From NCBI GenBank assembly GCA_016708315.1, contig JADJGC010000008.1:31699-95698 (forward strand): 64,000 nt of DNA. The letters run 5' to 3'. A program made the position numbers and the translations under genes. The stretch's first letter is position 1. The number at the start of each line of letters is the position of its first letter. Source of the DNA: a bacterium (GTDB lineage: Bacteria; Zixibacteria; MSB-5A5; CAIYYT01). Shown here piece after piece: positions 15,964 to 59,515 of the stretch. A model generated the notes under the pieces. That model did not search any database. It was not told the DNA's origin and saw only the letters and a list, made by a program, of their open reading frames with translations.

Positions 15964-17904
15964 TTATTTGAAGTCCTCTGCCTGAAAATCGAGAAACAGT
16001 TTCTGGGCGTCTTTGAGGTCCACCTGGCCTTCGTTGACCAGTTCCATGGCCTGCGCCATGATCGGTCTGAAGGCAGAATGTTGCTCGGCGTGCCGCACAA
16101 TCTCCGCGTGAGTCTGTCCCTTGAGCAGGAGTTCCCGCATGCCGGCGTCCACGGGAATGATTTCGGTGATGATTCTGCGGCCGGTGTAACCTTTGTGGCA
16201 GTTGCGGCAGCCGATGGTGTTGGCATGGTAAATCGCCGGATTCAATCGCACGCCGCTTTGCTTCTCGATGCGCACCATCTCCAGTTCGGTGGGCCGGCGG
16301 CTCTTGCGGCAGACCGGACACAGGCGCGGGATCAGGCGCTGGGCCAGAATCAGGCGCACCGCATCGGCGATCTGGTGCGCTTCCACATCCAAAGCCTGCA
16401 ACCGGTCGAACGTCCCGCTCGCCGAGTTCGTGTGCAGTGTCGTTAGAACCAAATGACCCGTATTGGCGGCCTGAACGGCGATCTGCGCCACTTCCCGGTC
16501 GCGGATTTCGCCCAGGAGAATGACGTGGGGCGCCTGGCGCAGGAGCGCGCGCAGGCCGCGGGCGAATGTCAACCCGATGACCTCGTTCACCTGCGTCTGG
16601 CTGATGCCGGGGATGTAAGTCTCGATCGGATCTTCGAGGCTGCACACGTTCAGCCGTTCGCGGTCCATCTCCTGGATGGCAGAGTACAACGTCGTTGTCT
16701 TGCCGGACCCGGTCGGGCCGGTGACGATCATAATGCCATTCACCATGCTGAGGGCCTTGCGCATGAGCTGAAGATGCCCCGGGTGCATGCCCAGCTTGTC
16801 GAGGTTGGGAAAGCGAATGGTGGCACTCAGCAGCCGTAGCGTGATTTTCTCTTCCTGACTGTCCAGCACCGGCATGGTCGCGGCCCGGATTTCCACGGGC
16901 GTGCCCCGGATGCTGAGGGTGATCTTGCCGTCCTGGGGCAGGCGCTTCTCGGTGATGTTCATGCCGGCGCGCACCTTGAGATGCAGCACGATATTGGTTC
17001 CGTACTGTTTGGGCATCCCGTCGAAGAATGTCGTGTTGATGCCGTCAATGGTGAAGCGTATCCGGTAATCGTTGATTTGCGGCTCGACCAGAATGTCGGA
17101 GGCGCCACGCTTGTAGGCGGCGAAGATCGCCGCCTCGGCAATCAGCTTGACCTTGACGTTCTTCGGATCGAGTTGCTCGTCGGTGAATTGGGCGGGGTCA
17201 ATGCTGTCAGCGAGGCTGTCGGGAATAACGTCGTCCTGCTTGATGAACTTGGACAACTGGATCGTCTTGTTAACCTGTTCCTCAAGGAAGCGATTGTAGT
17301 CCCGTGGCAGGACCGGGATCAGTTGCACGGCCAACCCCTGGCGGCGGATTTGCTCGGACACGGTCTCGACGCTGTTGAAACGGTCCCAGTTGAGCACGTA
17401 TCCCAACTGCATCAATCGATGGTTCTCAAACAGGATGACCGCTTCCACTGCCTTCAACGTTGCGGCACTTACGCGCTTGGACTCCTGCGGCACGTCGACG
17501 ATGTCCAATCCAATGCAGGACTCGCCTTTGATTTTGCGGGAGAACCAGTATTCCCATTCCGGCGAAACGTCGTCAAAGCTGTCGGTTGCTTTGATCTTCT
17601 CGAGAGCATTGCGATCTTCCTCCGTCAGTGCGTTGTGTGTCATCTGCCACTCGGCCCATTCCCTCGGCACTGATGGGGGCGGCTTGGAGTCCGCTGAGTA
17701 GGCTTTTGCCGATGGGCCGGCGTAGCGTTGGTCCCACGCTTCCGCCAGTTTCTGAAATGCACTCCAGGTGCAGAGGACCATCTGAAGGTTCTCCTTGTGG
17801 AAACACGCCGGCAGCGGCACGTGTGGATCGTAATGTGCCAGCAGAATTCCTGGTCCTTGCGTCATCACCGGCACGTGTCCGTTTTGCTCCCGTTGAAACC
17901 CCAA
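15964..17904 (-). CDS. type II secretion / type IV pilus assembly ATPase (GspE/PilB)
   Basis: GspE_N domain, Walker A MIVTGPTGSGKTTTLYS, Asp/His boxes, C-terminal CxxC...CxxC. Confidence 0.9.
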   Translation of the reverse strand: MGFQREQNGHVPVMTQGPGILLAHYDPHVPLPACFHKENLQMVLCTWSAFQKLAEAWDQRYAGPSAKAYSADSKPPPSVPREWAEWQMTHNALTEEDRNALEKIKATDSFDDVSPEWEYWFSRKIKGESCIGLDIVDVPQESKRVSAATLKAVEAVILFENHRLMQLGYVLNWDRFNSVETVSEQIRRQGLAVQLIPVLPRDYNRFLEEQVNKTIQLSKFIKQDDVIPDSLADSIDPAQFTDEQLDPKNVKVKLIAEAAIFAAYKRGASDILVEPQINDYRIRFTIDGINTTFFDGMPKQYGTNIVLHLKVRAGMNITEKRLPQDGKITLSIRGTPVEIRAATMPVLDSQEEKITLRLLSATIRFPNLDKLGMHPGHLQLMRKALSMVNGIMIVTGPTGSGKTTTLYSAIQEMDRERLNVCSLEDPIETYIPGISQTQVNEVIGLTFARGLRALLRQAPHVILLGEIRDREVAQIAVQAANTGHLVLTTLHTNSASGTFDRLQALDVEAHQIADAVRLILAQRLIPRLCPVCRKSRRPTELEMVRIEKQSGVRLNPAIYHANTIGCRNCHKGYTGRRIITEIIPVDAGMRELLLKGQTHAEIVRHAEQHSAFRPIMAQAMELVNEGQVDLKDAQKLFLDFQAEDFK

Positions 17905-17976: not shown

Positions 17977-18183
17977 CTAGGCAATGAATCCGGTCAGGTC
18001 CTCCTCGCCGAGAAAATTTTCGTCGCTGGACCGGATGGTATTCGAGGTGAGAAACTCGAAGAGATTTGGAACTGGCTCCTCAAAACGCAGGAGATGCTCC
18101 TGGGCAAACCGATCAAGGAGTTGTTGCAGCCCTGGCGTGACAATCAGCGCGGATGCTTCGGAGACGGTCTCGGAGCCTGTCAT
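17977..18183 (-). CDS. small acidic hypothetical protein
   Basis: 68-aa ORF in otherwise empty 545-bp gap. Confidence 0.25.
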   Translation of the reverse strand: MTGSETVSEASALIVTPGLQQLLDRFAQEHLLRFEEPVPNLFEFLTSNTIRSSDENFLGEEDLTGFIA

Positions 18184-18449
18184 CTTTTAATTATAGGCTC
18201 GTGGAAGACAAGAGGCGGAATCGTCGCGGTGGCGCCTTCCCGGCTCTATAATTCATTGGGATGAATCCGAGAATCGATCTCAGCCCTAAAGAGGTCGAGA
18301 GACTCCCCCGCGGAGTGCATCCCTGCCGCGAATACCGCGTGTTCGACCACAAACACGACCAATAGGTCCTCTACCGGGAATTTCTGTACGAAACGGCGCA
18401 CGGCATAGCGCACATCATCCTGGCACCCGGGCGAAACCTGCAGCAAGGC

Positions 18450-19739
18450 ATGGCGGCGGCCGATCGACTCCTGAAGGGCTGCTCCACAAACACGCTTCTC
18501 GAAACCGGGGTTTACGGGATTGTGAACTCCGTTCGGAACCACGAAGAAGCTTGTTCCGGGTCTCCGCTGGTGCTGGCCGTGGCGCGTTCCGGTGTCCATA
18601 CAGAATGGTCGTCGGAGCGTATGCTTGAAATCCTTTCCGGGGATGGCCAAACGCGGCCTTCTCGCCTGCACCGGAGCATGGTCAACCGACCTGCGCTCAT
18701 GTTCCGCTATCAACCTTTTGCGGAACGAGGCTATTTGCGGATCAAGCCAGGTTACGTTCCTCCCGAAGTTAAGTTGAAATACGCCGCACCGGTAGGGTGC
18801 GCCAGCAACGAACTGTTCTTGGCCGGGAAGATCGCCAATCGTTGGTCGGACGCCTTCTATCAGTCGGTCTTGACCAACGTGGATTACAATCTTTGGATCA
18901 CGGACGATGAAAAGAGCGCAATGTGCTTGTCGCTGCTGCCGCTGCTGCTGGGTCTGAAGATGGATGTAATTGGCATTCCTGGAAACTGGTCAAGAGGCAG
19001 CCACCGGGAGATGGACATTTGGAAGCTCGCGACTGAACTCGAGGCCTATCGCTTTATGACAGCGGAGGGCGCTCGCCGGCGGGTGGGGATTGTTTTCCGC
19101 CAGAATAGCTGGCTTGATGCTGAGTCGGTGGATGCACTTCTCCGTTTGTGCAAAACCTTGCGGGAGGCAGGGGCATCGGTTTTCGTCGCAGTCGTTCCAT
19201 CTGAAGCTCGGCAGGAGGGCATCGACCATTTCTTTGCGAAACATTGCGTTCGCGGAAACGTGCTCGCCTTCGGGCCAATGCTCGATCTGTTAAGCCGCTC
19301 AGTCTATCTGGACGGCGATTACGAGGTCAGCCATCCCGCCCCCGATGTGTCCTGCCGTCTGAAATCACTCGGCGAACGGGCGGAGGTGTTTTATGAGGTT
19401 CAAGAGAAGCTCAGAGACAAACCATTCACCGAGTTGCCTCCACGTGTTATCGACCGGGTGGTTTCCGAAATCGGACACTTGGCGACCGGCGAAGAGGGAG
19501 GAGACAGCTTCCGTCATGAATTTTGCGCCTTATCTTTGGAAGATCAGGCATCGCGGTGGGCGGACTGGATGGCTCAGAACCCTTTTCAAACAAAACTGGA
19601 TCGTGAACTGGACTCATTTATCCCGCCCGTATTTCGCGACCGGGGATCGATTGCCGCCCGGTTCTGCTTCGAAGACGCAGCGAACAATCGCCTGCCGCTG
19701 GAAACGTCAAGACAAGCCGGGAACGGCCCGTCCAAATAA
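18450..19739 (+). CDS. hypothetical protein (only long plus-strand gene in this half)
   Basis: 429-aa ORF, protein-like composition, moderate GC3; start uncertain. Confidence 0.45.
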   Translation: MAAADRLLKGCSTNTLLETGVYGIVNSVRNHEEACSGSPLVLAVARSGVHTEWSSERMLEILSGDGQTRPSRLHRSMVNRPALMFRYQPFAERGYLRIKPGYVPPEVKLKYAAPVGCASNELFLAGKIANRWSDAFYQSVLTNVDYNLWITDDEKSAMCLSLLPLLLGLKMDVIGIPGNWSRGSHREMDIWKLATELEAYRFMTAEGARRRVGIVFRQNSWLDAESVDALLRLCKTLREAGASVFVAVVPSEARQEGIDHFFAKHCVRGNVLAFGPMLDLLSRSVYLDGDYEVSHPAPDVSCRLKSLGERAEVFYEVQEKLRDKPFTELPPRVIDRVVSEIGHLATGEEGGDSFRHEFCALSLEDQASRWADWMAQNPFQTKLDRELDSFIPPVFRDRGSIAARFCFEDAANNRLPLETSRQAGNGPSK

Positions 19740-21101: not shown

Positions 21102-21602
21102 TCAGAAGCCGTAACGGGTGTAAGCCTCGTGCGAGTACTTGAGTTTCACGAAATCCGGATGGCGATCCCACTGACAGGCACCGCGGCGATCCTCGATGCA
21201 TTCGAAGACGCCGCTTTTCCAGATGAGAAACCATTCACCGTGACAGAGGATGCGGATGCAGGCCCGGTCGCCGTCGAATCGCGTCGCTTTGGTGACGTAA
21301 CCGCACGCTTCGCTCACCTTTACCAAGTGTTCGTAGGCTTGCGTGACCGTCCACCGAGCGTTGACCTCAGCTTCTCCCTGGCCGGAAATCACGATGTTGC
21401 GCTTGCCTTCGACCTGCAATTGGTGCTCGCGCTCCATTGCCTCGCCGAATGTGGCGCGCTGGTGGTTGCGGTAGAGGTACGGTTTGCCACTCGGCCATGG
21501 ACCGGATTTGTCAGTCAGACAGCCGTCGCACTTTTCATGCGTGGCCAGATAAAGACACGTCTCGCAACTGATCGGGACTTTTTCTTTGAGGTCGTCAGCC
21601 AT
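21102..21602 (-). CDS. Cys-rich hypothetical protein
   Basis: Start at MADDLKEK (ATG 21602); CETC...CDGC and further Cys/His. Confidence 0.45.
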   Translation of the reverse strand: MADDLKEKVPISCETCLYLATHEKCDGCLTDKSGPWPSGKPYLYRNHQRATFGEAMEREHQLQVEGKRNIVISGQGEAEVNARWTVTQAYEHLVKVSEACGYVTKATRFDGDRACIRILCHGEWFLIWKSGVFECIEDRRGACQWDRHPDFVKLKYSHEAYTRYGF

Positions 21603-22230: not shown

Positions 22231-22319
22231 CTGGCCGCCTTGTTGTTGGAGCAGTTCCGTCTCCGCGCGTAACTGCTGAATTTGGCCGATCGCCTTTGAA
22301 GTTCGGCAATCCTTTCTTT

Positions 22320-24386
22320 CTAGAATGATCCCCAGACGAGACTCGTGAGTTTCTGGCTGGCGGAAGCGATCCCGCTCTTCAGAGCTTCCACGTTGCGGAG
22401 TTTCTCAAAGCGGTTGGTCCAGTCGCCGCTCGCCTTTTGAAACGCGTCCTGTGCCTGATTCAACTCTTCTTCCTGACCCCGGCAAAGCTCAGTGTAATCG
22501 GTGTCGTTTCGGTAATCCTCCGGTTTGGCTTTGAGGCCGTGTTCCAACTCGCCGAGCTGCCCTTGGATCATCTCGGCTTGCTGTTTGAGCCGGGCGCGTT
22601 TCCTGGCATTTTCGTGCGCTGTCGTCTGCTTCCCCAGCAGTTCGCGTATTCGCACGCTTCCCTGTTCGATTTCATGGGCCAGTCGAGCGTCTTCGGCCGC
22701 ACGCCCTTGCTCTGCCGGTGACTCGGATACGATTTTCTCGCGCAGAGCATTTGCCTCCTTAGTCGGCGGAGTCAGGGCCGCTGTGACCTTCTGGTAGCCC
22801 GCGAGCACAATCTGAATCTGGCCATCCTCACTTTCCGGAAGTTGGAAAGCCGCCATCTGGGCGTTCAACTCCCGGCGCTTCCCGGCGCAGGCCGTTTCGT
22901 CTTGTTGAATCTGCTGGCGCAGTTTCGGAATTTCCGTTTGAGCCTGAGTCCATCGTTGGTACTCCGCCGCGGCTTGCGGGGATTTCTTCAGGTCGGCTTG
23001 CAGCTCTTTCGCCAACGCGTTGAGTTCGTCGCGGCGCTGAACCAGGGCAGGCTTTTCCCAGGCACGCTGGCAGAGCGGACATTGTTCCGTGGCAACGGTG
23101 GCGTGGCGATGAAGGCTGACGAGTTCCTGCAGCTTTGCCTCACTGGCCTTGCATGCCTTTAGCACTGCTGGCGACGGAGGCCGAACCTGCTCATACTGCG
23201 CCAGTCGTTCCTTCTGCTGGCTCAAGGCATGTTCCTGTGCCAGGAGTTGATGACTTGCGGTGTGAAGCTGGGATATATGGTCGAGCGTCAGCCGGTACCA
23301 ATTCGGGCTGTGTTTGAGTTCCGAGACGGTCTTCTGACTTTCGACGATGATTTTCTCCAGCTTCCCGAGTTCGCTGCGGAGTTGTTCCAGCGCCTGGCGA
23401 GCGCGGGCGATTTCATTCCTGCGATTGATCTTTTTCTGGAGCGTGTCGCTGCTCTCCTGAATCTGTTCAGTGTAATTGGTGCTGTCCTCTGGTGTTCCCG
23501 CCAACTCCTCTTGCGTGCGGCTCAGTTCTCGCCGCGCTTTCTCGACTTTTTGATGCTGCAGAGCAATCTGACTTCGCGCCAGTGCCGCACGAATGGTTTG
23601 AATCCGTTTTTGCAGCTCATCCAAATCCGGCAGCGGTTGCGAGATCCCTGCCTGTGTCTGGGCGAGTTTTCCCTGCTTGGCGGTGAGTTCTTTTTCGGCG
23701 CTCTCACGGAGCGTTTTGATCTCCTGGAGGCTGTTGAGTTCGCGTTGCAACTCCTCCGCTGGCGGCAAGGCCGCAGCGGTGACCTTCTTCTCTTCGGTCC
23801 GCCTTTCAAGCTGCTGCAGTTTGCCTTCGACATCGTGCATCAGTGGACTTGGGTCGAGGACGGTCGGGTAAGCGCGAACGAATTTATTGAGGGTTGCCTG
23901 CTTTTGCAGGAATCCTTTGAACCCGCAAATCTCAATGAACTTGGTCAGCCGCTCCTTGCCGCGCTCTTTGAGGAGACTGGCGATTTGTCCCTGGGGCGCG
24001 ATGAACAATTCCAGGAGGGTTTCCTGGCGACCGAACCATTCCTGAAGCTGCCTTTGGATTTCGTCCGCGTTGGTCAGCGTTTTGTCCGCGAATTCCAGCT
24101 TGGCTCGGGTTTGGCGCGGCTTGATCTCTCGCGAAATGGTGAACTGCGTCCGCTCGTGGGTCAGAGCCGTGAGTCGCAGAGATGCCTGCTTCGCTCCGTA
24201 CTGGATCGCCGATGCATCGCCGAATTCGCTCCGTCCCAAGGCGAGCACCCGGCCGATTGCCCGGACGAGGTTGCTCTTGCCGGAATTGTTTGGCCCGCTC
24301 AACAGGATGATCGGTTCGTCCGGGAACGTCAGGTCCAACCGCGAATGCTGACACCAATGCTGCAATTCAAGTCGGAGGAGTTTCAT
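22320..24386 (-). CDS. sbcC: SbcC/Rad50-like ATPase N-terminal part (Walker A, coiled coil, zinc hook); split from C-terminal part by frameshift
   Basis: GPNNSGKS Walker A, long coiled coil with CPLCQR zinc hook; ends TAG 22320-22322 while the C-terminal domain continues in another frame. Confidence 0.8.
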   Translation of the reverse strand: MKLLRLELQHWCQHSRLDLTFPDEPIILLSGPNNSGKSNLVRAIGRVLALGRSEFGDASAIQYGAKQASLRLTALTHERTQFTISREIKPRQTRAKLEFADKTLTNADEIQRQLQEWFGRQETLLELFIAPQGQIASLLKERGKERLTKFIEICGFKGFLQKQATLNKFVRAYPTVLDPSPLMHDVEGKLQQLERRTEEKKVTAAALPPAEELQRELNSLQEIKTLRESAEKELTAKQGKLAQTQAGISQPLPDLDELQKRIQTIRAALARSQIALQHQKVEKARRELSRTQEELAGTPEDSTNYTEQIQESSDTLQKKINRRNEIARARQALEQLRSELGKLEKIIVESQKTVSELKHSPNWYRLTLDHISQLHTASHQLLAQEHALSQQKERLAQYEQVRPPSPAVLKACKASEAKLQELVSLHRHATVATEQCPLCQRAWEKPALVQRRDELNALAKELQADLKKSPQAAAEYQRWTQAQTEIPKLRQQIQQDETACAGKRRELNAQMAAFQLPESEDGQIQIVLAGYQKVTAALTPPTKEANALREKIVSESPAEQGRAAEDARLAHEIEQGSVRIRELLGKQTTAHENARKRARLKQQAEMIQGQLGELEHGLKAKPEDYRNDTDYTELCRGQEEELNQAQDAFQKASGDWTNRFEKLRNVEALKSGIASASQKLTSLVWGSF

Positions 24387-28530: not shown

Positions 28531-29619
28531 TTACGTTCCGAGGGCGATGATCTCCTTTTTGACTTCGCCGTCGATTTGGCCCTGGCGATGGAGAATCTCC
28601 GCGGCCTTCTGCCAGTTTTGCATGCCGAAGTCGTTGTGGCCTGATTCGATGGCGCGGCGCACCCCTTGCAGGTCTCTCTGTTTGATGTAGGAGGCCACGC
28701 TGTCATTTGTCAGCAGAATCTCGCGTGCGGCCACCCGTCCTCCCTCCCGGCCTTTGACCAGGATTTGGCACAGGATGGCCTTGAGGCTGGTCGAGAGCAC
28801 GTTCCAGACGCTGGGCTGTTCGGCGGACGGAAACAGGTTGACGAACCGTTCAATCGACTGTGCCGCGTTGGACGTGTGCAGGGTGCCGAAGACAACATGT
28901 CCGGATTCGGAGGCCCGCAAGGCGATGTCGGCCGTTTCGTGATCGCGAATCTCGCCGACGAGAATCGTGTCGGGGTTCTGGCGCAGAGCCGCCCGCAACC
29001 CGAAGGCAAATGTGTTTACCGAAATGCCGACTTCGCGTTGAGAGATGTCGGAGCGTCCGTGCTTCAGGATGTACTCGACCGGCTGCTCGAGGGTGATGAT
29101 GTGTTCGCGAAAAGTGTCGGCGCGATGCTGGAGGAGCGCGGCCAGTGTGGTTGACTTTCCCTGACCTGTCTTGCCACAGACCAACACCAAACCCTGTTTG
29201 AACGCTTCAACGGTCTGCACGGTGCGCGCATCCAGTTGAATTTCATCCGGGGTGGGAATGTGATCGTTCAACGGCCGCAACGCGATTCGTGCCGTCTGCC
29301 GCAAGGCCTCGGGATCGAGAACACGATAAAAATTGAACCGGTAACGTTTCTTGTGGCAAGTGAGGGCGCCGTCCACCGATCCTTCCGGGTAGATTTCCAT
29401 CCGGGTGATGGAGCCCTTGATCACCGTCTCGCCGGCTTGGTTCAAAAAGGCGACGAGCGCGTTTTCGTCCGGCGCGATGATGGAGGTGGGACAGACTTCG
29501 CCGTTCGCGCGAACATGGATGGTTTTCCCGGCGCAGACATAAATGTCGCTGACCTTGCGCTCGACTAGTTGGTTGAGCACACCGGCCAATTGCTCGGGAC
29601 TCTGAATCTGATCTGCCAT
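28531..29619 (-). CDS. pilT: twitching-motility / retraction ATPase PilT family
   Basis: Walker A GLVLVCGKTGQGKSTT, Asp box, His box (GHVVFGTLHT), PilT C-terminal region; start at MADQIQ (ATG 29619). Confidence 0.9.
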   Translation of the reverse strand: MADQIQSPEQLAGVLNQLVERKVSDIYVCAGKTIHVRANGEVCPTSIIAPDENALVAFLNQAGETVIKGSITRMEIYPEGSVDGALTCHKKRYRFNFYRVLDPEALRQTARIALRPLNDHIPTPDEIQLDARTVQTVEAFKQGLVLVCGKTGQGKSTTLAALLQHRADTFREHIITLEQPVEYILKHGRSDISQREVGISVNTFAFGLRAALRQNPDTILVGEIRDHETADIALRASESGHVVFGTLHTSNAAQSIERFVNLFPSAEQPSVWNVLSTSLKAILCQILVKGREGGRVAAREILLTNDSVASYIKQRDLQGVRRAIESGHNDFGMQNWQKAAEILHRQGQIDGEVKKEIIALGT

Positions 29620-30907: not shown

Positions 30908-31705
30908 TCATTCCAGGGCCTTCAAGGCAGCAGCGACTTCCTCATGGATTTCTCCTTTCCGTGCGAGCTCATCCAGGCAGCTGTTCCAATCGATGCCTCC
31001 TCCGGCGCTGATCAGCTCCCGAATTCTCACGGGCGGCACACTTTGGTTGTTGAGATGATAGAGCAGTTGCGCGAGGTCCTTGGTTCGGAATAGCACTTCG
31101 TAACCCAGGACCCGCCGTGGGTCCTGCTCCGTTGCGTTCCTGGCTGGGATCAGGTTTTGCGCGACGATACACAGAAGGTTGTTGGCAAGCATCTGCGCCA
31201 CCAAACGAGAATCGGTTCCGGCCTGGGCCAGAATGCGATCAATGGCCTGGTACGCGGAGGACGCGTGCATGGTGCCGATGATCAAATGGCCGGTTTCGGC
31301 GGCGGTGATGACCGTGCGCATGGTTTCCGCATCGCGGATTTCGCCAATGGCAATGACCTCCGGTTTCATGCGCAGCGCATCCATCAGCCCTTTGGAATAA
31401 CTGGCGCAGTCGACCCCAACGCTGCGCTGAGTCACCATCGAGTAGGCGGACTGCTGCTTGTGCAAACGGGGAGCAAACAGAAACTCGACCGGATCCTCAA
31501 GCGTCACCACGTGGTAGGGGTTCGCGTCGATCAGATGCTGGATGACGGCAGCCAAAGTGGTGGACTTGCCGGCGCCGGTGGGGCCGGTGATCAGGATCAG
31601 TCCCTTGGTTTGTTGCAGCGTCTGGACGAGTTTGTCGTAGTGTTTTTGCTGGAGACCAAGCTTGTCCAGGTCAAGCAGGTTTCGATCAAGCACCCGGACG
31701 GTCAA
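30908..31705 (-). CDS. PilT-family ATPase, ATPase domain (TTG start directly after in-frame TAG)
   Basis: LILITGPTGAGKSTT Walker A, Asp/His boxes. Confidence 0.8.
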   Translation of the reverse strand: MTVRVLDRNLLDLDKLGLQQKHYDKLVQTLQQTKGLILITGPTGAGKSTTLAAVIQHLIDANPYHVVTLEDPVEFLFAPRLHKQQSAYSMVTQRSVGVDCASYSKGLMDALRMKPEVIAIGEIRDAETMRTVITAAETGHLIIGTMHASSAYQAIDRILAQAGTDSRLVAQMLANNLLCIVAQNLIPARNATEQDPRRVLGYEVLFRTKDLAQLLYHLNNQSVPPVRIRELISAGGGIDWNSCLDELARKGEIHEEVAAALKALE

Positions 31706-32092
31706 CTACGGCCCGCTCAAGGTGCTGACCAGGATGGCGCGGTAGCGGCATTCTCTTTGGATCTGGTCGAGCGCCGAGGAGAGGGTGCCGGAGAAATGAT
31801 ATGACTCCTTGTTGGCAATACAGTTCCTGGCTTCTTCAAAGCGTGAATTGAGCAGGAACTGGAGGACCACGTCCATTTTGTCCTGGTCGATCACGGGCGC
31901 TCCAGTCACTTCGGTGAAAAAGCCCTGGCGGCGGATAAACGGTTTGCGGCCCAGGGCGATGTAGTAGTCGTTGACGTCCGACGTGATGACCAGATTGAGG
32001 ATGCCGCGGGCCTGGTCTGCGGCCTGATCCACCTCAAGGTTTCTGGGGAGCATGGTGATCATGGTTGTGGTTTGCAGGTGCGGGCTTGCCAA
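31706..32092 (-). CDS. PilT N-terminal domain, separated from ATPase domain by an in-frame TAG (31706-31708)
   Basis: SDVNDYYIALGRKPFIRRQGFFTEV resembles the PilT N-domain; same reading frame as 30908..31705. Confidence 0.5.
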   Translation of the reverse strand: MASPHLQTTTMITMLPRNLEVDQAADQARGILNLVITSDVNDYYIALGRKPFIRRQGFFTEVTGAPVIDQDKMDVVLQFLLNSRFEEARNCIANKESYHFSGTLSSALDQIQRECRYRAILVSTLSGP

Positions 32093-32294: not shown

Positions 32295-32485
32295 AATTCG
32301 TTCAGCACCGCTCGCAACTTCTCCCGATAATCCTCCTGCACCTTTGGGTCGGGGCGAAACGCGTTGGTGACGGCCAAACCGAAGACGGCAATCACGCGCC
32401 CGCTGCCGTCAATCACCTCTTCGCCGATGAGTTGGTTTGTCAGCGGCCGGACGAGGAAGGTCTTGCCCAGCGACCCCGTTTCCAC
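32291..32485 (-). CDS. fragment 3 of the same disrupted gene
   Basis: As above. Confidence 0.3.
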   Translation of the reverse strand: METGSLGKTFLVRPLTNQLIGEEVIDGSGRVIAVFGLAVTNAFRPDPKVQEDYREKLRAVLNEL

Positions 32486-36564: not shown

Positions 36565-36899
36565 AATCCCGCGCAGGTTTTACCCTGGTTGAGTTGGTGG
36601 GAGCGCTGGCCATCATCAGCATTCTTGTGGGGATGGTTCTGGTAACGACCGGCAATTCTCGGGACCGGGCTTTGCAGACGCGCATTTCGGTTGACCTGGA
36701 AGCCATCAACGCCGCCAAAGGTTTTTGGGTTCTGGATCACAACGGCGCGGCATTTCCGACTGATGAATCCGGGCGGTTCAACGCGATCCGCAAATATCTG
36801 GAAGTGAACCGCAGCTTTTCCTCCCTGGCGGATTATCAACCGCCGGGGGTCAGCTATTCGATCAACGGCATTGGAGTACCGCCTTCACACGCACCGTAA
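36561..36899 (+). CDS. prepilin-type pseudopilin
   Basis: MKSRAGFTLVELVGALAIISILVGMVL; 4-nt overlap with upstream gene. Confidence 0.75.
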   Translation: MKSRAGFTLVELVGALAIISILVGMVLVTTGNSRDRALQTRISVDLEAINAAKGFWVLDHNGAAFPTDESGRFNAIRKYLEVNRSFSSLADYQPPGVSYSINGIGVPPSHAP

Positions 36900-36900
36900 C

Positions 36901-37275
36901 ATGAAACCGACGTCACGCATGCGGGGTTTTTCGCTGATTGAGGTAGTGGCGGTGATGGCGCTGCTGCTGCTGATCATGGGGCTTGGATTGTGGGGACTGG
37001 GCGGTTCTCGTGGACGGCAGTTGCGCGAGAAAGTGGTCCTGGATCTGGCTCGGATTGACTCCGCGAAAGCAACCTGGCGCGCCGATCACCCACAGGCAGC
37101 ATTCCCGGACGATGAGGCCGCGCGCTTTGACGCCCTCCCGGTCCTATCTGGTCGCAAGGTGCCACCCTGCCTCTTTGCAGCCGAACACGAATCTGGCCGG
37201 AATGGTTGTGTACGCGATCAGTGCGGAGACGAATGCGGCCAGCGCTCGAAATCTCTCTTCCTCACAACAGTTTGA
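36901..37275 (+). CDS. prepilin-type pseudopilin
   Basis: MKPTSRMRGFSLIEVVAVMALLLLIMGL. Confidence 0.7.
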   Translation: MKPTSRMRGFSLIEVVAVMALLLLIMGLGLWGLGGSRGRQLREKVVLDLARIDSAKATWRADHPQAAFPDDEAARFDALPVLSGRKVPPCLFAAEHESGRNGCVRDQCGDECGQRSKSLFLTTV

Positions 37276-46505: not shown

Positions 46506-47756
46506 TCAAGCTTTGACTCCTTTGGGGTAACGCTTGGCGAATTCGATGAGTGCATCGGTGAGCGTCAGGCCCGAGCCCACTAGCTTTTCGAACTCGAGTT
46601 TGTCAGCCGGCCGCGTAGTGGTGGTCGCATAAAGCAGGGGCGGCATTGTCAGTTCAAGAATCAAGCGCCGCGTCCCCTGCGTGCGCCGCTGGATCATGTA
46701 GCATTGGGAGAACTGTCCGGGTTCGGTCACGAGGCGCATCGCCAGCAGATCGCCTTCGTGCCCTTGAATGTAACGGACGGTTTCCTCAGCCACGTTGGTG
46801 GATAACTTGAACAGGAAAAACGTGCTGATCGAATCGCGAATGGCCTCGCTGTTTTTCAAGCTGCCCCATTCCGTAATGCCTTGCGAGATGAACATGAGGG
46901 CGATGCCGTATTTGCGGTACGTGCGCGCGGCCTCTTCAAGGAATTTCGCGCAGATGGGTGAGGACATCAGGTTCCAGCCTTCGTCGATGAAGAAGATTTT
47001 GTCCTGGGCGGCAAACTCGCGCGTCATGGTCTGGGCGAAGCGGATCGCGACCATCATCGTCACGGGACCGACGTCGCGGTCGTCTTTGCGCCGGGTGAAG
47101 TCGAACACGGTGAAGGGATTCCTCGCCGTCACCATGCTGGTTCCGTCAAAGAGATTTCCATAGCTGCCGCCTTTGCACCAAATGCGCAGCCGGTTGCCCA
47201 GCGACTTGGCGTTGGGTGAACTCTGGTTGGCGAGAATCTTTTGTACATCGCTCAATATGACTTCCTCGCCGCGCGCCACCTTGGCCTGATACGCCTGGCG
47301 GATGCACTCGGTGAGCAGCATCCGGTCTTCCTTGGGGAGTTGGTCCTGGTCGTTTTCGATCACCATGCGCTCGACGAGCAGCGCGTTTTGAATGATCTCC
47401 TCTTCGCCGGGAATGCTGCCGGGCGGCGCATAGAGGAAGTTCATCCGGTTGCGGTCGTTGTCCAAATCCATCGTGAGATAATTGCCGCCCAGGACGTGGC
47501 AGAGCTTGTAGTAAGAGCCGCCAATGTCGATGCCGACGCAGCGCGCGCCACCAGCCATTTTCTGCAAAAGAATCAGGTTGGTCGCTACGGATTTGCCCGA
47601 ACCCGATGACCCCGCGATCATCATATTGAAGTTGTTCAGATTAGTGAAGTCATGGGGCGCAAAATTGTACATTGTGCCATGTCTCGTATGGAATAGGCAC
47701 GAAGGTGGGGCTTCGGTTCCGTCGGGCAAATACAGTGCGGGCAGCAAGGTCGCCAA
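46506..47756 (-). CDS. VirB4/TrbE/TraC-family conjugative ATPase, C-terminal ATPase part; gene split by frameshift
   Basis: MMIAGSSGSGKS Walker A, IWCKGGSYGNLFDG, FFIDEGWNLM Walker B, RKYGIALMFISQ. Confidence 0.8.
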   Translation of the reverse strand: MATLLPALYLPDGTEAPPSCLFHTRHGTMYNFAPHDFTNLNNFNMMIAGSSGSGKSVATNLILLQKMAGGARCVGIDIGGSYYKLCHVLGGNYLTMDLDNDRNRMNFLYAPPGSIPGEEEIIQNALLVERMVIENDQDQLPKEDRMLLTECIRQAYQAKVARGEEVILSDVQKILANQSSPNAKSLGNRLRIWCKGGSYGNLFDGTSMVTARNPFTVFDFTRRKDDRDVGPVTMMVAIRFAQTMTREFAAQDKIFFIDEGWNLMSSPICAKFLEEAARTYRKYGIALMFISQGITEWGSLKNSEAIRDSISTFFLFKLSTNVAEETVRYIQGHEGDLLAMRLVTEPGQFSQCYMIQRRTQGTRRLILELTMPPLLYATTTTRPADKLEFEKLVGSGLTLTDALIEFAKRYPKGVKA

Positions 47757-49047
47757 CCTGGCTCGAAGAATAGGCGTGATCGCGGTAGCGATCCTTGTCG
47801 CTCAAGTATCCCGGGGTGGTCTTGAGAAAATACGGGGCAATCGGCGTGGTCTCGTGGATCCAGGTCATGCCCTCGTTCTGCTGCCCGAATTGGCGCTGTT
47901 CCAGCACCAGATTATTGAGCGCATCCAGGTCGGCGGCCCAGAGATGAATTGAGTGTGCGGCGGTCCAAGGGCGGTCCTTGCCCGTGGCTAGTTCGTCAAT
48001 TTCCGCTTCAATCTCTTCCAACGTTCGGCGCAGCTCGGGTTGTTTCTCCACGCGGCCCAGCACCTGAAGGCGCCGATTTTTGAGCCGGCGCAGCCGCCTG
48101 CCAATGTCGCTGCTGCGCGCCTCCACGCTGAATGCGCCAGAGACAAAACCCGGCGCCAGCATCTGCGGCAGCAACATGCCAAACTGCAACTGTGTGGGCG
48201 GCTCGTGAAGAAACAAAATCCGCCGGTAAAGGCCGTCCATTTGAATCCAACCCTGCCGCGGGTTCACTTCCATCTGGCCATGGACGAAATAGGATGTGGC
48301 CGGCTTCGGTTCAATCGGAGCGTAAGGCGGCGGCCGCACGCCTTGTGAGTACGACTTCGGGTTGTACCACCAGTAAAGCGTCTCGACGATGTCTTCGGAG
48401 GGCAGGAGTCTCGACTCGATGCCAGCGGCCTTCAGGATGGCCTGAGCCTGCTGCGCCTGTTTGGAGAGCAGGTTGACGGCGGTGTTCCACTCTTCCTCCG
48501 TCAGGTTCGCAGCCTCGGCCATCGAGAGTTCAAGGCTGTCGCGCAGGAAATGGGTCACGCGACTCAACCAGTTTTCCTTGGGACTCAATTTGCGATGCCG
48601 CTTGATGCGCTCGGAGAATTCCACGATCGGCTCGACGCCGACGAAGAGGTAGCAGGCGTACCGGCGCAACTGGTTGGTGGCGACTTTCTCCTGGTAGTGC
48701 TGGCCGATGTCCTGCTTGAACTGCGCCAGCAGGGGATTGCCTTTGGGCGTCGTCGACAAGTAGTCATCCAGCAATTTGCCGTATTGATTGTGGCAGATGG
48801 TGATGAACTGGAGCCGGGTTTCTGTGTCGCCCATCACGGCCAACTGGTTGAGCATGCTGCTGAAAGCGTTGTGCAGTTCATCCGCCTGCGCGCTCGAAAC
48901 AAAGAGGGTGTCCGGATACTGCACCCGCAACCCGACCGCCAACGACATGTCCTGAGCAACGATGACGTGGTTGTCTATCCAGGCGATGGGAATTTCTTCA
49001 TCGAGACAAACCCCGGAAAGACGGTTGATCCGCTCGTAATCCAGCAT
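47650..49047 (-). CDS. VirB4/TrbE-family ATPase, N-terminal part
   Basis: 465 aa with CagE/TrbE/VirB4 N-region character; overlaps the C-terminal part by 107 nt in another frame. Confidence 0.7.
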   Translation of the reverse strand: MLDYERINRLSGVCLDEEIPIAWIDNHVIVAQDMSLAVGLRVQYPDTLFVSSAQADELHNAFSSMLNQLAVMGDTETRLQFITICHNQYGKLLDDYLSTTPKGNPLLAQFKQDIGQHYQEKVATNQLRRYACYLFVGVEPIVEFSERIKRHRKLSPKENWLSRVTHFLRDSLELSMAEAANLTEEEWNTAVNLLSKQAQQAQAILKAAGIESRLLPSEDIVETLYWWYNPKSYSQGVRPPPYAPIEPKPATSYFVHGQMEVNPRQGWIQMDGLYRRILFLHEPPTQLQFGMLLPQMLAPGFVSGAFSVEARSSDIGRRLRRLKNRRLQVLGRVEKQPELRRTLEEIEAEIDELATGKDRPWTAAHSIHLWAADLDALNNLVLEQRQFGQQNEGMTWIHETTPIAPYFLKTTPGYLSDKDRYRDHAYSSSQVGDLAARTVFARRNRSPTFVPIPYETWHNVQFCAP

Positions 49048-54646: not shown

Positions 54647-56243
54647 GATTCAGTAGACACCCAGTTGCGTGAATAATCAGCTCCCACATCTCTTCTGCTT
54701 CCGAAATTGAAAAGCGTTTAGGCGAAGGGTTGTGCGAGTCATCATGAGATCCCGCGTTGCCTAGGTCGATTATGCGGGCAAGCTTGCGCAAGAACTCTAC
54801 ATCTTTGGACGCTGCTTTTCTGAGGGGATGGACCGGGTGCAATGATGACGCCAACAAAGTTGCAACCACTGCACTTGGCAATTTGTAAACGTTACCCACA
54901 TCCCGGCATATTCCAATTATGAGGCCTTTGTTTGGCTTTCCGCCCGACTTATCAATCTGAAAAACTCCGGGCAATGGCAGGCGTAATCCAATTGATTGAG
55001 CTATGTGGTCAACGGTTGCCCGGTCAATCGCAACGTCGCCGTTAAGAAGTGCCGGCGCATTACTCAACGATGAAACTCGAGCGATTGACTTCAGCAACGC
55101 TTCAAGCGTCCTTCGACATGATTGCATGACCGAGCCGAGGTCACTCTGAGATTCTCCTTCGGTGGCTCTCGCCAGGGATAAACTTTTGGCCGCTGCCACC
55201 AGGTGCTCAAAAACGGCGGAGGTTGCCTTAATATCGAGGGACAGTCGCGCCACGACCTCGGATTCGGCAATTTTTTGTTGCTGCTCCAACAACTCCTCCA
55301 AGGCCGGAGCATCCTTAATCTGCGCGAATCGCAAAAAATCCCGCTGGGCACCAGCCGCGCCCTCATCGTCTCTAGCTATTCGTTGCAGTTGACGCCACAT
55401 TTTCTCGTCGCACCCAAATCCGAACGGATCACAAATCTGAGGTAGAAATGCGCTCCCTTTGGGCAAGTATCCAAACGTAACCAGCCCGGCTGGCTCGGGC
55501 TGGTCGCTAATCGAAGCGATACGCGCGAGCAATTCAGGTGAATCATCGCCGGCGATTCCCATTATCTCCGATGCATCCAAGCGCATTGATTTTTTCTGTT
55601 CTTCACGACGGCGACACTGCTTTACCGCCCGCAAAATCATGGCGCTGGATGGTTGCACCGGGCTCGCCGGGGCATCGAAGGTCCAAGCAGGAACCTTGCG
55701 TAGCCCCCTTTTTGAATCCAGTGCCAAGTTCAAACGTCCCAGTCCATAGCCTATGGTGGTTTCTTGAAGCTGAAGCTGTTGGCTGAAGTGCGGCCAGAGT
55801 TCGCCGCTCCAGGGGTCTTGGAATACCCAACCGGTGATCAATGTATCTATGATCAATTCTTCTTTTTCAAGGACGTCAAGCCCCTTGGGTGTCGGGCGGA
55901 ATGATTTCTGGTCCACCCAGCCAGAACGGACCAACTCCATGCCGATATTTTCAACCAGGTGAGGATGGAGGTGAAGTTTGGTGGCGATCTCCGCGACCGA
56001 ATATGAATTGCTGCACCACAAACCGAGCACTGCTTTCTGGAGAAGGTTGATGCGTTGGTCTGATGGTGCTGGTGCCACCACCCGCCATGCGGCGCATGGC
56101 CAAACAAGATAGACACGCCCCGTGCGATCATAATCGTGGTGGGCGGCTCGGGGACCGTAATTTAAGACAAGATCCATGGTGTCAGAAAATTGCCCCATGG
56201 CTGCCCCGGCAAAGTTTTTGGAATGCATGGAGGCCGGGGACAT
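54600..56243 (-). CDS. hypothetical island protein (possible wHTH near N-terminus)
   Basis: 547-aa ORF between helicase and McrB-like genes, overlapping both. Confidence 0.5.
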   Translation of the reverse strand: MSPASMHSKNFAGAAMGQFSDTMDLVLNYGPRAAHHDYDRTGRVYLVWPCAAWRVVAPAPSDQRINLLQKAVLGLWCSNSYSVAEIATKLHLHPHLVENIGMELVRSGWVDQKSFRPTPKGLDVLEKEELIIDTLITGWVFQDPWSGELWPHFSQQLQLQETTIGYGLGRLNLALDSKRGLRKVPAWTFDAPASPVQPSSAMILRAVKQCRRREEQKKSMRLDASEIMGIAGDDSPELLARIASISDQPEPAGLVTFGYLPKGSAFLPQICDPFGFGCDEKMWRQLQRIARDDEGAAGAQRDFLRFAQIKDAPALEELLEQQQKIAESEVVARLSLDIKATSAVFEHLVAAAKSLSLARATEGESQSDLGSVMQSCRRTLEALLKSIARVSSLSNAPALLNGDVAIDRATVDHIAQSIGLRLPLPGVFQIDKSGGKPNKGLIIGICRDVGNVYKLPSAVVATLLASSLHPVHPLRKAASKDVEFLRKLARIIDLGNAGSHDDSHNPSPKRFSISEAEEMWELIIHATGCLLNLATTKPQNYEQKRSQ

Positions 56244-57336
56244 ATTGGGAAAATTCGGACGAGGCCATGGCTGAATCTCCGACCGTAATCAATAATCGCT
56301 TTTGGCGACTCATCGCGACACACAGGCGGTTTTCAAGCAATAGATGGCCGAATTTGCGGCGAACACTTTTATCATCGGCGGGTTGAATTCGGTTTGAACG
56401 AGTCAGCGAGAGGATGACAACATCGAATTCCTTGCCTTGAAAGGCATCCACGGTCCCGACGCGAAGACGTTCGCACACTTCGCGTTGAGCGTTGACTGTG
56501 CTGCGCCAGGCATCCGCAATGACCAAATCGTTATCATCCGACAGGGTTGTCAGGTCCACCCGTTGCATTGCGGTCATGATGGCCTTGACCTGCGCGGCAT
56601 AAAAAGAAATGATCCCCACGCTCAACCCGGGAGATTCTTGCAAGATGCGGCGTGTTTCGGCGGCAATCCAATCCGCCTCACAATGCCGAACCCAGCTGTG
56701 GTCGGCGTGTTCCTCTGCACCGTTGTAGATGGGCAGATTCTTCCAAACCGCAAGTTTTCCCTCGTAGCTTCCGCCCAAGCCGTGGGCAAATTGCGGGTTC
56801 AATTCGGCACCATCGGGCGATAGAAACGCCTCACCGTGGTCCTTGTAAAAGGCGTCACTTACAAAAGTGCCCAGCACCGGATGCATCCGGTATTGGGTGT
56901 CCAGCGTGACCCAGCGTTTTATACCGTCTAATTTCTCCAAATCCTTGACGTGGATGAACAGCCGTTCAAACAGGCTCTTACGGATCTGGTCGCGGGTCTC
57001 ATCACGAACAGATTGCTCAAGTTCGCGCTCCACTTCTGGCTCCAAAAGATGGGGCAGTTGCCGGTGATCACCCACCAAAATGATTCGCCGGGCGGCTCGG
57101 CTCAGGGGAATGAGCAAATCAAGGGGATTGGCCCGGGCCGCCTCATCGACAATGACATTCTCAAACTCAAGATCGTCCGAGAGCATTTCCATCATCCGGT
57201 CACTGACCGCCTGCTGACAAGTTGCCGCAAGGACCACCGTGTAATTCTCGACGGTTTTCCGCAACCCGACCGGGTCATTTCGCAGGTCCTGAATCAGTTG
57301 TTCGAGCACCATATCCGGCCCCCTCAGCCGACGCAT
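56182..57336 (-). CDS. Upf1-like SF1 helicase, C-terminal part (motifs II-VI); split from N-terminal part by frameshift
   Basis: IVDEAARANP (motif II), ILVGDHRQLP (III), VDAFQGKEFDVVILSLTRSN (V), CVAMSRQKRLLITVGD (VI). Confidence 0.75.
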   Translation of the reverse strand: MRRLRGPDMVLEQLIQDLRNDPVGLRKTVENYTVVLAATCQQAVSDRMMEMLSDDLEFENVIVDEAARANPLDLLIPLSRAARRIILVGDHRQLPHLLEPEVERELEQSVRDETRDQIRKSLFERLFIHVKDLEKLDGIKRWVTLDTQYRMHPVLGTFVSDAFYKDHGEAFLSPDGAELNPQFAHGLGGSYEGKLAVWKNLPIYNGAEEHADHSWVRHCEADWIAAETRRILQESPGLSVGIISFYAAQVKAIMTAMQRVDLTTLSDDNDLVIADAWRSTVNAQREVCERLRVGTVDAFQGKEFDVVILSLTRSNRIQPADDKSVRRKFGHLLLENRLCVAMSRQKRLLITVGDSAMASSEFSQYVPGLHAFQKLCRGSHGAIF

Positions 57337-59515
57337 TGCGAACGCACTTGTCCAAGGTGGAAATCATCTCATCAAGAACGTTGATGACTTCCGAATTGAC
57401 CAATGGGGTTCGGGAAGGCGGGGTAGATAATTGCAGGGCATCCAACAGCCGATTTTTGACCAATTCCATTGCCGGCAAGAAGTCGGGCGCAGACTCACTA
57501 TCCCAGTCTCTGGCCTTTTCCAAAAGGGCGCGGTCTTCGGCAGTGAGCCAAGAGCCTGATGATAATTGATTGAGAACCCGCCATGCCATCTTCGGCCCGT
57601 CATCGGCGAACGCCTCTTTCTGAATGCGCAGACCACGGACCACCTGGATGGCTGCCTGACACTCGTCGTCCTGACCGGCCACTCCCAGTTTGAGGCGGTC
57701 AGCCACACTGACAATCCGGTCAGACAAATCCGCTGGCAAATGCTCGCCTGCCAACGAACGTAAATCCAACAGCATGCGAGCGGCTTCGGTTTCAGTTCCA
57801 GGAGATTTGACATAGGAGGCATGTCTGATCCGAATTGTTTCCAGCAACTTTCTCAACGGCTTTTTTGGGCTGGCTGCCAAGTCCGCCTCCAAGGCTTCCG
57901 CGATCCGGTTGGTCCAAGCTATCAAGGGCAGACTTTCGGAGTTGTCTCCTCGTCGCCGGCCCACCTTCATCGCCGGAAGGCCGAAAATCTCGGTCATGGC
58001 CGCCGCATTCTCGACCGCATCATGTTGGAAGCTTGTGAGCAACACCTTTTCGAAGTCAGCGTTTTGATCTTTGGCAATTTCAGTAAGGCGCTCGATGATG
58101 GCTGATATGGTGCGGGTCTTGCCGGTGCCGGGTGGCCCTTGAATAACGGCTATATCGGGGGTGTTCAATGCAACCCTGATGGCTTCCACCTGCCGTGGGG
58201 TCGGCGCACCGGAATGAAACCGGGCTTTCGCCGCGCCGGACAACGGTTCGTGCGTCTGCACGCGGCGAACCGGCACTGGCCGGTTTTCAAGCAACAAAGC
58301 CAGTTGTGGAATTGAAGTCTTCCCGCTGGCAATGCGTGAATGCGCCTCGTTTCGGCGTGCCATTCTTTTCAAATCGCCGCGCAAGCTGACATGAATATAA
58401 CCCCGATCTGGTGGCACAACCCCATCTTGGGTATCGGGGCGCAGTCGAATGCTTTGGGTGTCGTTACCAGCCAAAGCGCCACGAAACGCCGGCCGTGATT
58501 CGCGAACCGCTATTTGAAAACTGGGCGTCTCTTCGTCGCCGGCTGGCGTGCTGGTGAGCATATCCGGGACTTCCGCTGATGCCTCCAAATCCTTGTCGGC
58601 GGTGATGCCCTGCCATAGTTGGGAGGGGGTCCATTGGCTATCGGCGGTCAACTGAAAAGACCAGCATCCATCCGGCATTCGATGACAACCATCGTAGCTC
58701 AACCAGCCAAAGCGTTTGGCCTCTTCAACGACACGCCGATGTTCCATCGCCTGGTATTCCAGCCAGACTCCCAAATAACTGCCGGCGGTGCGGACAATCT
58801 GATCGAGTTCCGTTGCCATCCCCTGCCGCATCTTGCCGGCTATGGTCTGATCAACAAATTCAAAGGCCCCTTCGGCAAGAATAACGGGGCGATATTCTTC
58901 CGGTTTGATGGCGGTCTTGGGGCGGGTTAGACGAAATGCCAACCAGCCACCTTCTTTATGCCGTTCGACATCCAGCGCGAATCGGTCACCGAGGATTCGG
59001 AAGGCTTGTTTTTGGCTATGTTGCGAGTCTGGCCGACCAATGATGATTACCCTGGCCAGTCCAGCTGGCGAATTGGGCTGGATGATTAATTTATCGGCGA
59101 GCCAAGCACAGGCGGTTTCGGTTGAGAAACGGCGTGCCTGTTGTCGTCCCATATCGGCCACCAGCTTTTCGTCCACGCCGATTTTTAGCTCAGGAATAGA
59201 AAAGCGTTCCGAGAATTCGTGAATCTGGATGGTCAAAGCGACCAACTGATTGCGGTCAGAGCGCAAACCAACCAACCAACACAACCGGGGAGCATCCTGT
59301 TCAATTGAGCGTTGCAGTTCCCTCCGACTTTTGTGGTCCCTTGCATCAACAACCAATGGTTCGGCTTGGCCCGGAAGAATAAGCGCACACAGGTCGCCAA
59401 CGCGCGTCAGCATCAACTCCCGCCCGTTGGGCGGAATCCGCTCAATTCCGACATCCACCAAGGGGACAACATCAAGCGTCAGAATCTTACCGTGTTGGAG
59501 GTTGGCGATTTCCAT
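57275..59515 (-). CDS. Upf1-like SF1 helicase, N-terminal part (large N-terminal region + Walker A)
   Basis: VIQGPPGTGKTRTISAIIERL; overlaps the C-terminal part by 62 nt in another frame at a C5 run (57319-57323). Confidence 0.75.
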   Translation of the reverse strand: MEIANLQHGKILTLDVVPLVDVGIERIPPNGRELMLTRVGDLCALILPGQAEPLVVDARDHKSRRELQRSIEQDAPRLCWLVGLRSDRNQLVALTIQIHEFSERFSIPELKIGVDEKLVADMGRQQARRFSTETACAWLADKLIIQPNSPAGLARVIIIGRPDSQHSQKQAFRILGDRFALDVERHKEGGWLAFRLTRPKTAIKPEEYRPVILAEGAFEFVDQTIAGKMRQGMATELDQIVRTAGSYLGVWLEYQAMEHRRVVEEAKRFGWLSYDGCHRMPDGCWSFQLTADSQWTPSQLWQGITADKDLEASAEVPDMLTSTPAGDEETPSFQIAVRESRPAFRGALAGNDTQSIRLRPDTQDGVVPPDRGYIHVSLRGDLKRMARRNEAHSRIASGKTSIPQLALLLENRPVPVRRVQTHEPLSGAAKARFHSGAPTPRQVEAIRVALNTPDIAVIQGPPGTGKTRTISAIIERLTEIAKDQNADFEKVLLTSFQHDAVENAAAMTEIFGLPAMKVGRRRGDNSESLPLIAWTNRIAEALEADLAASPKKPLRKLLETIRIRHASYVKSPGTETEAARMLLDLRSLAGEHLPADLSDRIVSVADRLKLGVAGQDDECQAAIQVVRGLRIQKEAFADDGPKMAWRVLNQLSSGSWLTAEDRALLEKARDWDSESAPDFLPAMELVKNRLLDALQLSTPPSRTPLVNSEVINVLDEMISTLDKCVRNASAEGAGYGARTTDSGPAK

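Follow-up and report, generated by a model that had tools for sequence, protein, structure and literature searches.

PilT and PilU, the retraction ATPases of type IVa pili (TIGR01420; structures 3JVV, 2EWV, 5FL3, and 6OJX), share a two-domain architecture and fold with the protein described here, together with the Walker A, Asp box, Walker B, and His box motifs, although characterized PilT proteins are only 26–35% identical to it. The homologs of this protein form a distinct clade of 381–393-aa proteins that come from uncultured Verrucomicrobiota-type MAGs. In the stretch of DNA that we analyzed (64,000 nucleotides, hereafter the window), the gene for this ATPase is interrupted by an in-frame TAG codon, and a likeness can be drawn to amber reassignment or suppression, as in TAG-recoded phages and pyrrolysine decoding: apart from its in-frame TAG the gene is intact, and the four premature stops in question are all TAG. 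The window differs from these systems, however, in that the TAG is absent from relatives, TAG is still used as a terminator, no suppressor tRNA lies nearby, and frameshifts occur alongside. Changes in the length of nucleotide runs are the classic signature of long-read consensus error. The split genes that result from residual consensus errors in Nanopore MAGs are matched by the window in two respects, namely, single-base run-length indels and substitutions break ORFs, and the lesions are found in one assembly whereas short-read assemblies of near-identical strains are intact; the window differs in its larger share of substitutions, and the platform, in our case, is only probably a long-read one. 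As detailed below, the TAG is a single-base lesion private to one assembly, most likely an error of sequencing or assembly or at most a very recent private mutation, and is no sign of unusual decoding.

The PilT-like gene belongs to a conserved cluster that also encodes a secretin, a PilB/GspE-like ATPase, a second PilT-like ATPase (362 aa), an MshEN-domain protein, and pseudopilins. The relatives are located on contigs of up to 600 kb that belong to uncultured Verrucomicrobiota-type MAGs. Read on the minus strand, the interrupted region is CTG GTC AGC ACC TTG AGC GGG CCG TAG TTG ACC GTC CGG GTG, and the components of the split gene are as follows.

30908..32062, minus strand: PilT-like (PilT/PilU superfamily) ATPase gene, 384 codons plus a terminal TGA, broken at codon 119
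31709..32062, minus strand: N-terminal fragment of 118 aa, that is, the N-terminal domain minus its last beta-strand (from the structure of an intact ortholog)
31708..31706, minus strand: in-frame TAG at codon 119, a private change compared with nine concordant relatives
31705..31703, minus strand: TTG, the invariant Leu120 codon, adjoining the TAG; start of a 265-aa fragment in the public record
30908..31702, minus strand: remainder after Leu120, comprising the last strand of the N-terminal domain, the linker, and the ATPase domain
31585..31559, minus strand: Walker A motif GPTGAGKST (residues 160–168), read from the sequence; its columns are invariant in alignments of homologs

The TAG is caused by one base, a G>T change on the coding strand that corresponds to C>A at window position 31708. 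Direct reading bore out the statement of the preliminary description that ORFs 31706..32092 and 30908..31705 are in one frame, with the TAG between them and TTG as the next codon. The start of the upstream ORF had, however, been placed at the TTG at 32092, whereas the true start is the ATG at 32062 (MITMLPRN...), which is the same in all relatives. The downstream ORF, 30908..31705, matches the Pfam family T2SSE (E = 5e-43) and contains GPTGAGKST, in agreement with the earlier assignment of an ATPase domain with a Walker A motif to this half, and the upstream ORF, 31706..32092, yielded no Pfam match when searched alone.

We searched for homologs with the conceptual read-through product, in which the stop was replaced by X, and recovered dozens of uninterrupted proteins of 381–393 aa with 53–99% identity, followed by ordinary PilT proteins at ~35%; altogether, more than 40 homologs lack the interruption. 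At the position of the stop, an alignment of 27 homologs contains Glu in 26 sequences and Gln in one, and the next residue, Leu, is invariant; across distant homologs, the residue at codon 119 is E, Q, or A. The AlphaFold2 model of an intact, 99% identical ortholog (P0001; pLDDT 85.9, pTM 0.81) has the two-domain PilT fold, with an N-terminal PAS-like domain and a C-terminal ATPase domain, and without the extra N-terminal domains of PilB/GspE. The top Foldseek matches for this model are PilT4, PilT2, PilT, and PilU, all over the full length (TM 0.72–0.87, and ~0.8 for PilT4, PilT2, and PilT; E ~1e-31). Because dozens of 384-aa homologs can be aligned with the joined product over its entire length and the intact ortholog folds as PilT, the two ORFs are not a chance juxtaposition. 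In the model, codon 119 marks the start of the second strand (117–126) of the last beta-hairpin in the N-terminal domain, followed by a linker (~127–138) and the ATPase domain (from ~139). Thus, the break, initially thought to separate the N-terminal domain from the ATPase domain, is located inside the N-terminal domain.

The Walker A motif (GPTGAGKST), Asp box (TLEDPVEF), Walker B motif (EVIAIGEIRD), and His box (ETGHLIIGTMHA) are conserved or invariant in the homologs, as aligned to PilT structures. Nevertheless, the protein does not reach the curated NCBIfam threshold of TIGR01420 (232.7 bits vs a cut-off of 319.1), and the neighboring PilT-like paralog is likewise below the cut-off (284.8 bits). 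The AIRNLIRE motif of retraction ATPases is not conserved either: the region aligned to '...PAIRNLIRE...' of Pseudomonas aeruginosa PilT reads 'RTKDLAQQLYHLNNQ'. Judged by its sequence, the protein is PilT-like, though not a member of the curated family. A literature search on PilT paralogs in Verrucomicrobia returned nothing relevant.

Intact ORFs orthologous to the PilT-like gene are present at ten loci (L001 and L005–L013). Where the window reads CCG TAG TTG, nine close loci read CCG GAG TTG and the remaining one (L013) reads CCG GAA TTG, so that all encode Glu, and relatives with 98.4–99.9% identity in this gene have a Glu codon; hence, TAG is not conserved at codon 119 in related genomes (0/10 orthologous loci). 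With GAG at the nine close loci, a nonsense mutation or a substitution error, which the preliminary description had listed among its candidates, does account for the interruption. The closest relative, L010, a 6.7-kb contig from a different sample, is identical to the window at 1154 of the 1155 nucleotides of the gene, and the sole difference is the G>T change that makes the TAG. Over 6739 bp, the two sequences differ at 12 sites, of which two disrupt genes in the window, namely, the TAG and the G5>G4 change at 32473.

Both halves of the gene have dN/dS values of 0–0.12 in comparisons with the ten orthologs (Nei-Gojobori method), and the differences between the window gene and those of L006 and L008 include 11 synonymous and no nonsynonymous ones. 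Such strong purifying selection up to the present rules out the decaying paralog that had been proposed for this copy; furthermore, the gene has no other difference from L010, and the lesion is not shared. As had been noted, the second PilT-like gene (28531..29619, 362 aa) is uninterrupted; it is of equal length in all relatives. Two further public assemblies (P0040 and P0049) contain frameshifted copies of the 384-aa PilT-like gene, in which the sequence runs out of frame after residues ~270 and ~240, respectively, which shows that sporadic, one-off disruptions of this gene occur in metagenome data.

The ORFs of the relatives were projected onto the window, with 2 to 9 relatives available per site. 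We identified at least nine gene-breaking single-base lesions in the 64 kb, comprising four premature TAGs and five homopolymer-length frameshifts, in eight genes. Apart from the TAG at codon 119 of the PilT-like gene, these are the following.

8042: 1-nt run-length change in an SNF2-like gene (1338 aa in relatives)
14962: 1-nt run-length change in the secretin gene (745 aa)
17977-17979, minus strand: premature TAG at codon 69 of the PilB/GspE-like ATPase gene (739 aa); GAG in L015 and L016
18363-18365, plus strand: premature TAG at codon 35 of a 492-aa hypothetical gene (18261..19739); TGG in relatives
22320-22322, minus strand: premature TAG at codon 689 of an SbcC/SMC-like gene (921 aa); CAG in relatives
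22294: 1-nt run-length change in the same SbcC-like gene, 28 nt after its TAG
32473 (run 32473-32477): 1-nt run-length change, G5>G4, in a 107-aa gene adjoining the PilT-like gene
57319-57323: 1-nt run-length change, G4>G5, in an SF1 helicase gene (1104 aa)

None of the nine lesions occurs in any close relative, and each of the affected genes is a single ORF in all relatives examined. The four TAGs stand for GAG, GAG, CAG, and TGG of the relatives. After its TAG, the PilB/GspE-like ATPase gene leaves a residual ORF (15964..17904) that restarts at TTG, and the frameshift in the SF1 helicase gene splits the AAA_11 and AAA_12 domains over ORFs 57275..59515 and 56182..57336. Some of the lesions are closely spaced with other private changes: the TAG at 18363-18365 sits among three private G>A changes in 14 nt, and that at 22320-22322 is included in a 32-bp cluster (22294-22325) of five private substitutions and a 1-nt deletion (A4>A3). 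If independent, two lesions within 28 nt in this 2.8-kb gene would have a probability of ~0.02. The five isolated private indels in coding sequence are all run-length changes (G5>G4, A4>A3, C3>C2, GG>G, and G4>G5).

Nonsense changes account for 3 of the 51 private coding substitutions in the window, compared with 0/605 in four relatives over the same columns (Fisher p = 4e-4), and the synonymous share of private substitutions in the window (45%; 45–56% over analyses) is just modestly lower than in the relatives (54–72%). The window is thus a genuine constrained lineage overlaid with disruptive single-base lesions. Under a neutral model built from the window genes and the observed mutation spectrum, 4% of substitutions make stops, and 49% of these stops are TAG. 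A further private stop, a TGA at 21102-21104, is harmless.

The decoding of TAG in the window was assessed from its use as a terminator. The genes that end in TAG at 13076 and 25625 do so in the window and its relatives alike, and a new gene in another frame begins 2 nt after the TAG at 13076 (13073). At 2084-2086 (minus strand), a 384-aa AAA ATPase gene is terminated by TAG in the window and by TAA in L015 and L016. A tabulation of stop codons over the likely genes of the window, as suggested in the preliminary description, gave 37 TGA, 13 TAA, and 8 TAG, with genuine TAG terminators among the latter. Avoidance or loss of TAG as a terminator was therefore not seen; TAG has been retained and, at 2084, gained. 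When TAG, TGA, or TAA was treated as a sense codon, the gain in ORF length held no TAG-specific signal, and genome-wide recoding was rejected on account of this result and of the genuine TAG terminators. No tRNA genes, suppressors included, are found within the window or at 16 related loci. The initial view that amber recoding is unlikely is upheld by the conservation of TAG terminators, the lack of conservation of the lesion, and the co-occurring frameshifts. The example then cited as a genuine stop turned out to be the TAG at 22320-22322, that is, a premature in-frame TAG in the 921-aa SbcC/SMC-like gene, with CAG in relatives.

Exact-sequence look-up showed how the fragments appear in public records. 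The 118-aa fragment is MBK7091796.1 (IPH59_08755), annotated as 'hypothetical protein', and the 265-aa fragment, with Met at the TTG, is MBK7091795.1, annotated as 'Flp pilus assembly complex ATPase component TadA'. A 688-aa SMC fragment is MBK7091786.1, annotated as 'AAA family ATPase'. All three are located on one NCBI MAG contig (116,811 bp) and nowhere else by this look-up, whereas the contigs with full-length 384-aa forms number in the dozens and derive from many samples. In other assemblies, no split copy was detected when either fragment or two neighboring genes were looked up as exact genes. The accession and locus-tag style (MBK70..., IPH59) resembles that of an activated-sludge Nanopore MAG project, to which this MAG may belong. 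In the activated-sludge long-read MAG project, Nanopore reads were assembled with CANU and polished with Racon, twice with medaka (r941 model), and once with Racon using Illumina data (PMC8012365). The same project deposited JADJ-series MAGs, including Verrucomicrobiota at ~8–9x coverage (PMC8012365).

We attribute the TAG, with a probability of roughly 65%, to a residual consensus error that arose in an error-prone MAG assembly, probably one based on long reads. A single-base error would have turned the conserved Glu119 codon GAG into TAG in an intact, strongly constrained gene, and the organism would make one full-length PilT-like protein, with no special decoding involved. The change is private, its background is intact and constrained, other private lesions co-occur with it, and TAG is a normal terminator; we infer that errors, not real mutations, gave rise to the lesions and that a long-read platform was used for the source assembly. 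Support for an error comes from the run-length indels and clustered miscalls that accompany the TAG across many unrelated genes, from the confinement of the fragments to one contig when full-length forms are found on dozens, from the excess of nonsense changes in the window (3/51 vs 0/605), and from the location of two of the four TAGs inside tight clusters of private changes. The main competitor is a genuine, very recent GAG>TAG nonsense mutation that is fixed or dominant in the strain and has created a fresh loss-of-function PilT-like allele, possibly within a broader, recent loss of function that takes in the pilus-like machinery and neighboring genes. We regard such a mutation as possible but unlikely. 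In its favor, one apparatus is hit repeatedly (the secretin at 14962, the PilB/GspE-like ATPase at 17977-79, the PilT-like ATPase, and the small gene at 32473), a pattern that would fit pathway decay after a first hit, and the mutation is in keeping with a frameshift to nonsense ratio of 5:4, which is compatible with neutral mutation input, with the GC->AT bias of the private changes, which resembles that of raw mutations, and with the sporadic frameshifted copies of the PilT-like gene in other assemblies (P0040 and P0049). In addition, several observations count against an error. The TAG in the PilT-like gene is an isolated G>T transversion, outside a homopolymer and without a recognizable methylation-type motif; four nonsense codons are many for random substitution error, given that, at the neutral rate of 4%, they imply ~100 unselected substitutions in ~58 kb; the ratio of substitutions to indels (4 nonsense vs 5 indels) is high for a typical Nanopore consensus; and the private substitutions are partly filtered by selection (45–56% synonymous), so that the sequence is not generally of poor quality. 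However, the TAG is absent from every independent sample that was looked up, the PilT-like gene has a strongly constrained history and no other private change, and genes unrelated to the pilus-like apparatus are also broken (those for the SNF2-like, SbcC-like, SF1 helicase, and 492-aa hypothetical proteins). Moreover, the indels are all run-length changes and some of the lesions are clustered, and real lesions at a density of ~1 per 7 kb would extrapolate to hundreds of broken genes, which is implausible for the genome of a free-living bacterium.

The residual consensus error also has to be set against two further readings. A tolerated or functional TAG, with either read-through by an amber suppressor or a stop followed by reinitiation at the TTG to give two reassembling fragments, is very unlikely. 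The harmful premature stops are TAG in 4/4 cases versus 49% expected (p = 0.058), a bias that is suggestive at most; the TTG directly abuts the TAG; and the variability of codon 119 in distant homologs means that an inserted residue could be tolerated. Against this, the near-identical relatives encode Glu rather than TAG, TAG ends the conserved genes at 13076 and 25625 and has replaced TAA at 2084, no tRNA is encoded in the window or the 16 related loci, and suppression would leave the five frameshifts that occur alongside unrepaired. Reinitiation at the adjacent TTG, one of the candidates in the preliminary description, finds no dedicated restart mark, given that this TTG is an ordinary, invariant Leu120 codon and that a Shine-Dalgarno-like GGAGG is absent upstream of it (31705..31703); the break, furthermore, falls inside a beta-hairpin of the N-terminal domain and off the domain boundary in the AlphaFold2 model. 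A lineage that tolerates in-frame amber codons, where a recently acquired amber-suppressor tRNA encoded elsewhere would keep the PilT-like ATPase and other proteins partly functional, is extremely unlikely. Older Nanopore chemistry is known to produce systematic errors at methylated motifs, and the TAG could accordingly belong to a reproducible class of base-calling artifacts at a DNA methylation motif instead of being a random consensus error. One of the four TAG sites (22322) indeed replaces a CCAGG (Dcm-type) context of the relatives, but the four sites have no motif in common (CCG[G>T]AG, GCC[G>T]AGG, CC[C>T]AGG, and AAT[G>A]GG) and differ in the type of change (two G>T and two transitions), so that the likelihood of such an artifact is close to negligible. 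Strand-coordinated, deamination-like hypermutation was also considered, because plus-strand G>A changes (60) outnumber C>T changes (36), and was set aside given that mixed clusters are common in natural variation and the sequence contexts are heterogeneous.

The case is mainly a caution: in the public record, the two halves of one gene product have entries of their own, one as a 'hypothetical protein' and the other as a 'TadA' ATPase, and the SbcC-like protein likewise loses one third in public annotation. Scans for recoding or for pseudogenes would be misled by this contig. Were the lesions real, the strain would have undergone a recent loss of a pilus-like apparatus and of several genes for DNA metabolism, and amber suppression, if true, would be a rare natural example among Verrucomicrobiota. 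Neither of these outcomes is favored by the evidence.

Nearly all genes in the window are on the minus strand. In addition to the complete pilus-like apparatus and many proteins without a Pfam match, the window encodes proteins of replication and repair (DnaN, PolA, a 5'-3' exonuclease, RNase HII, SbcCD, SNF2, and a DinG-like helicase), a sigma-70 factor, and a TraG-like ATPase. The window may be core chromosome or a large integrated element. A phage or mobile-element origin, considered as a reason for decay, found no support: no relatives of the window were found in IMG/VR, by exact 28-mers or family patterns, and the PHROG matches are generic (DNA polymerase, sigma factor, and helicase).

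Several other segments of the window vary between strains. Compared with L015 and L016, a segment of ~1.45 kb, which carries a gene for a 360–399-aa protein in these relatives, is absent at window position ~1275, and ~135 bp have been lost in frame near the 3' end of the SNF2-like gene (window ~4590). Synteny with close relatives stops at ~49.1–50.2 kb, and the contigs of L001 and L005 end near 50 kb. The block at 50–62 kb encodes two AAA_5 proteins (700 aa and 794 aa), a 535-aa protein, the SF1 helicase, and a Ser/Thr kinase, and is matched only at 75–86% amino acid identity, in other contexts (L019–L024); it looks like a variable, possibly defense-island-like module. At 46506-49047 (minus strand), two ORFs in different frames share 107 nt, one of 465 aa and, following it, a TraG/VirB4-like P-loop ORF of 416 aa, and the tail of the upstream, 465-aa ORF looks non-protein-like; this is probably a further frameshifted gene, of ~850 aa, in a region without covering relatives. 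Finally, a small gene (36871-37275, plus strand) located 3' of the N_methyl pseudopilin genes is hypervariable between strains and includes ~80 bp (37089-37168, plus strand) with 15 private substitutions and many small indels between flanks that are ~99% identical. This gene may encode a diversifying minor-pilin-like protein.
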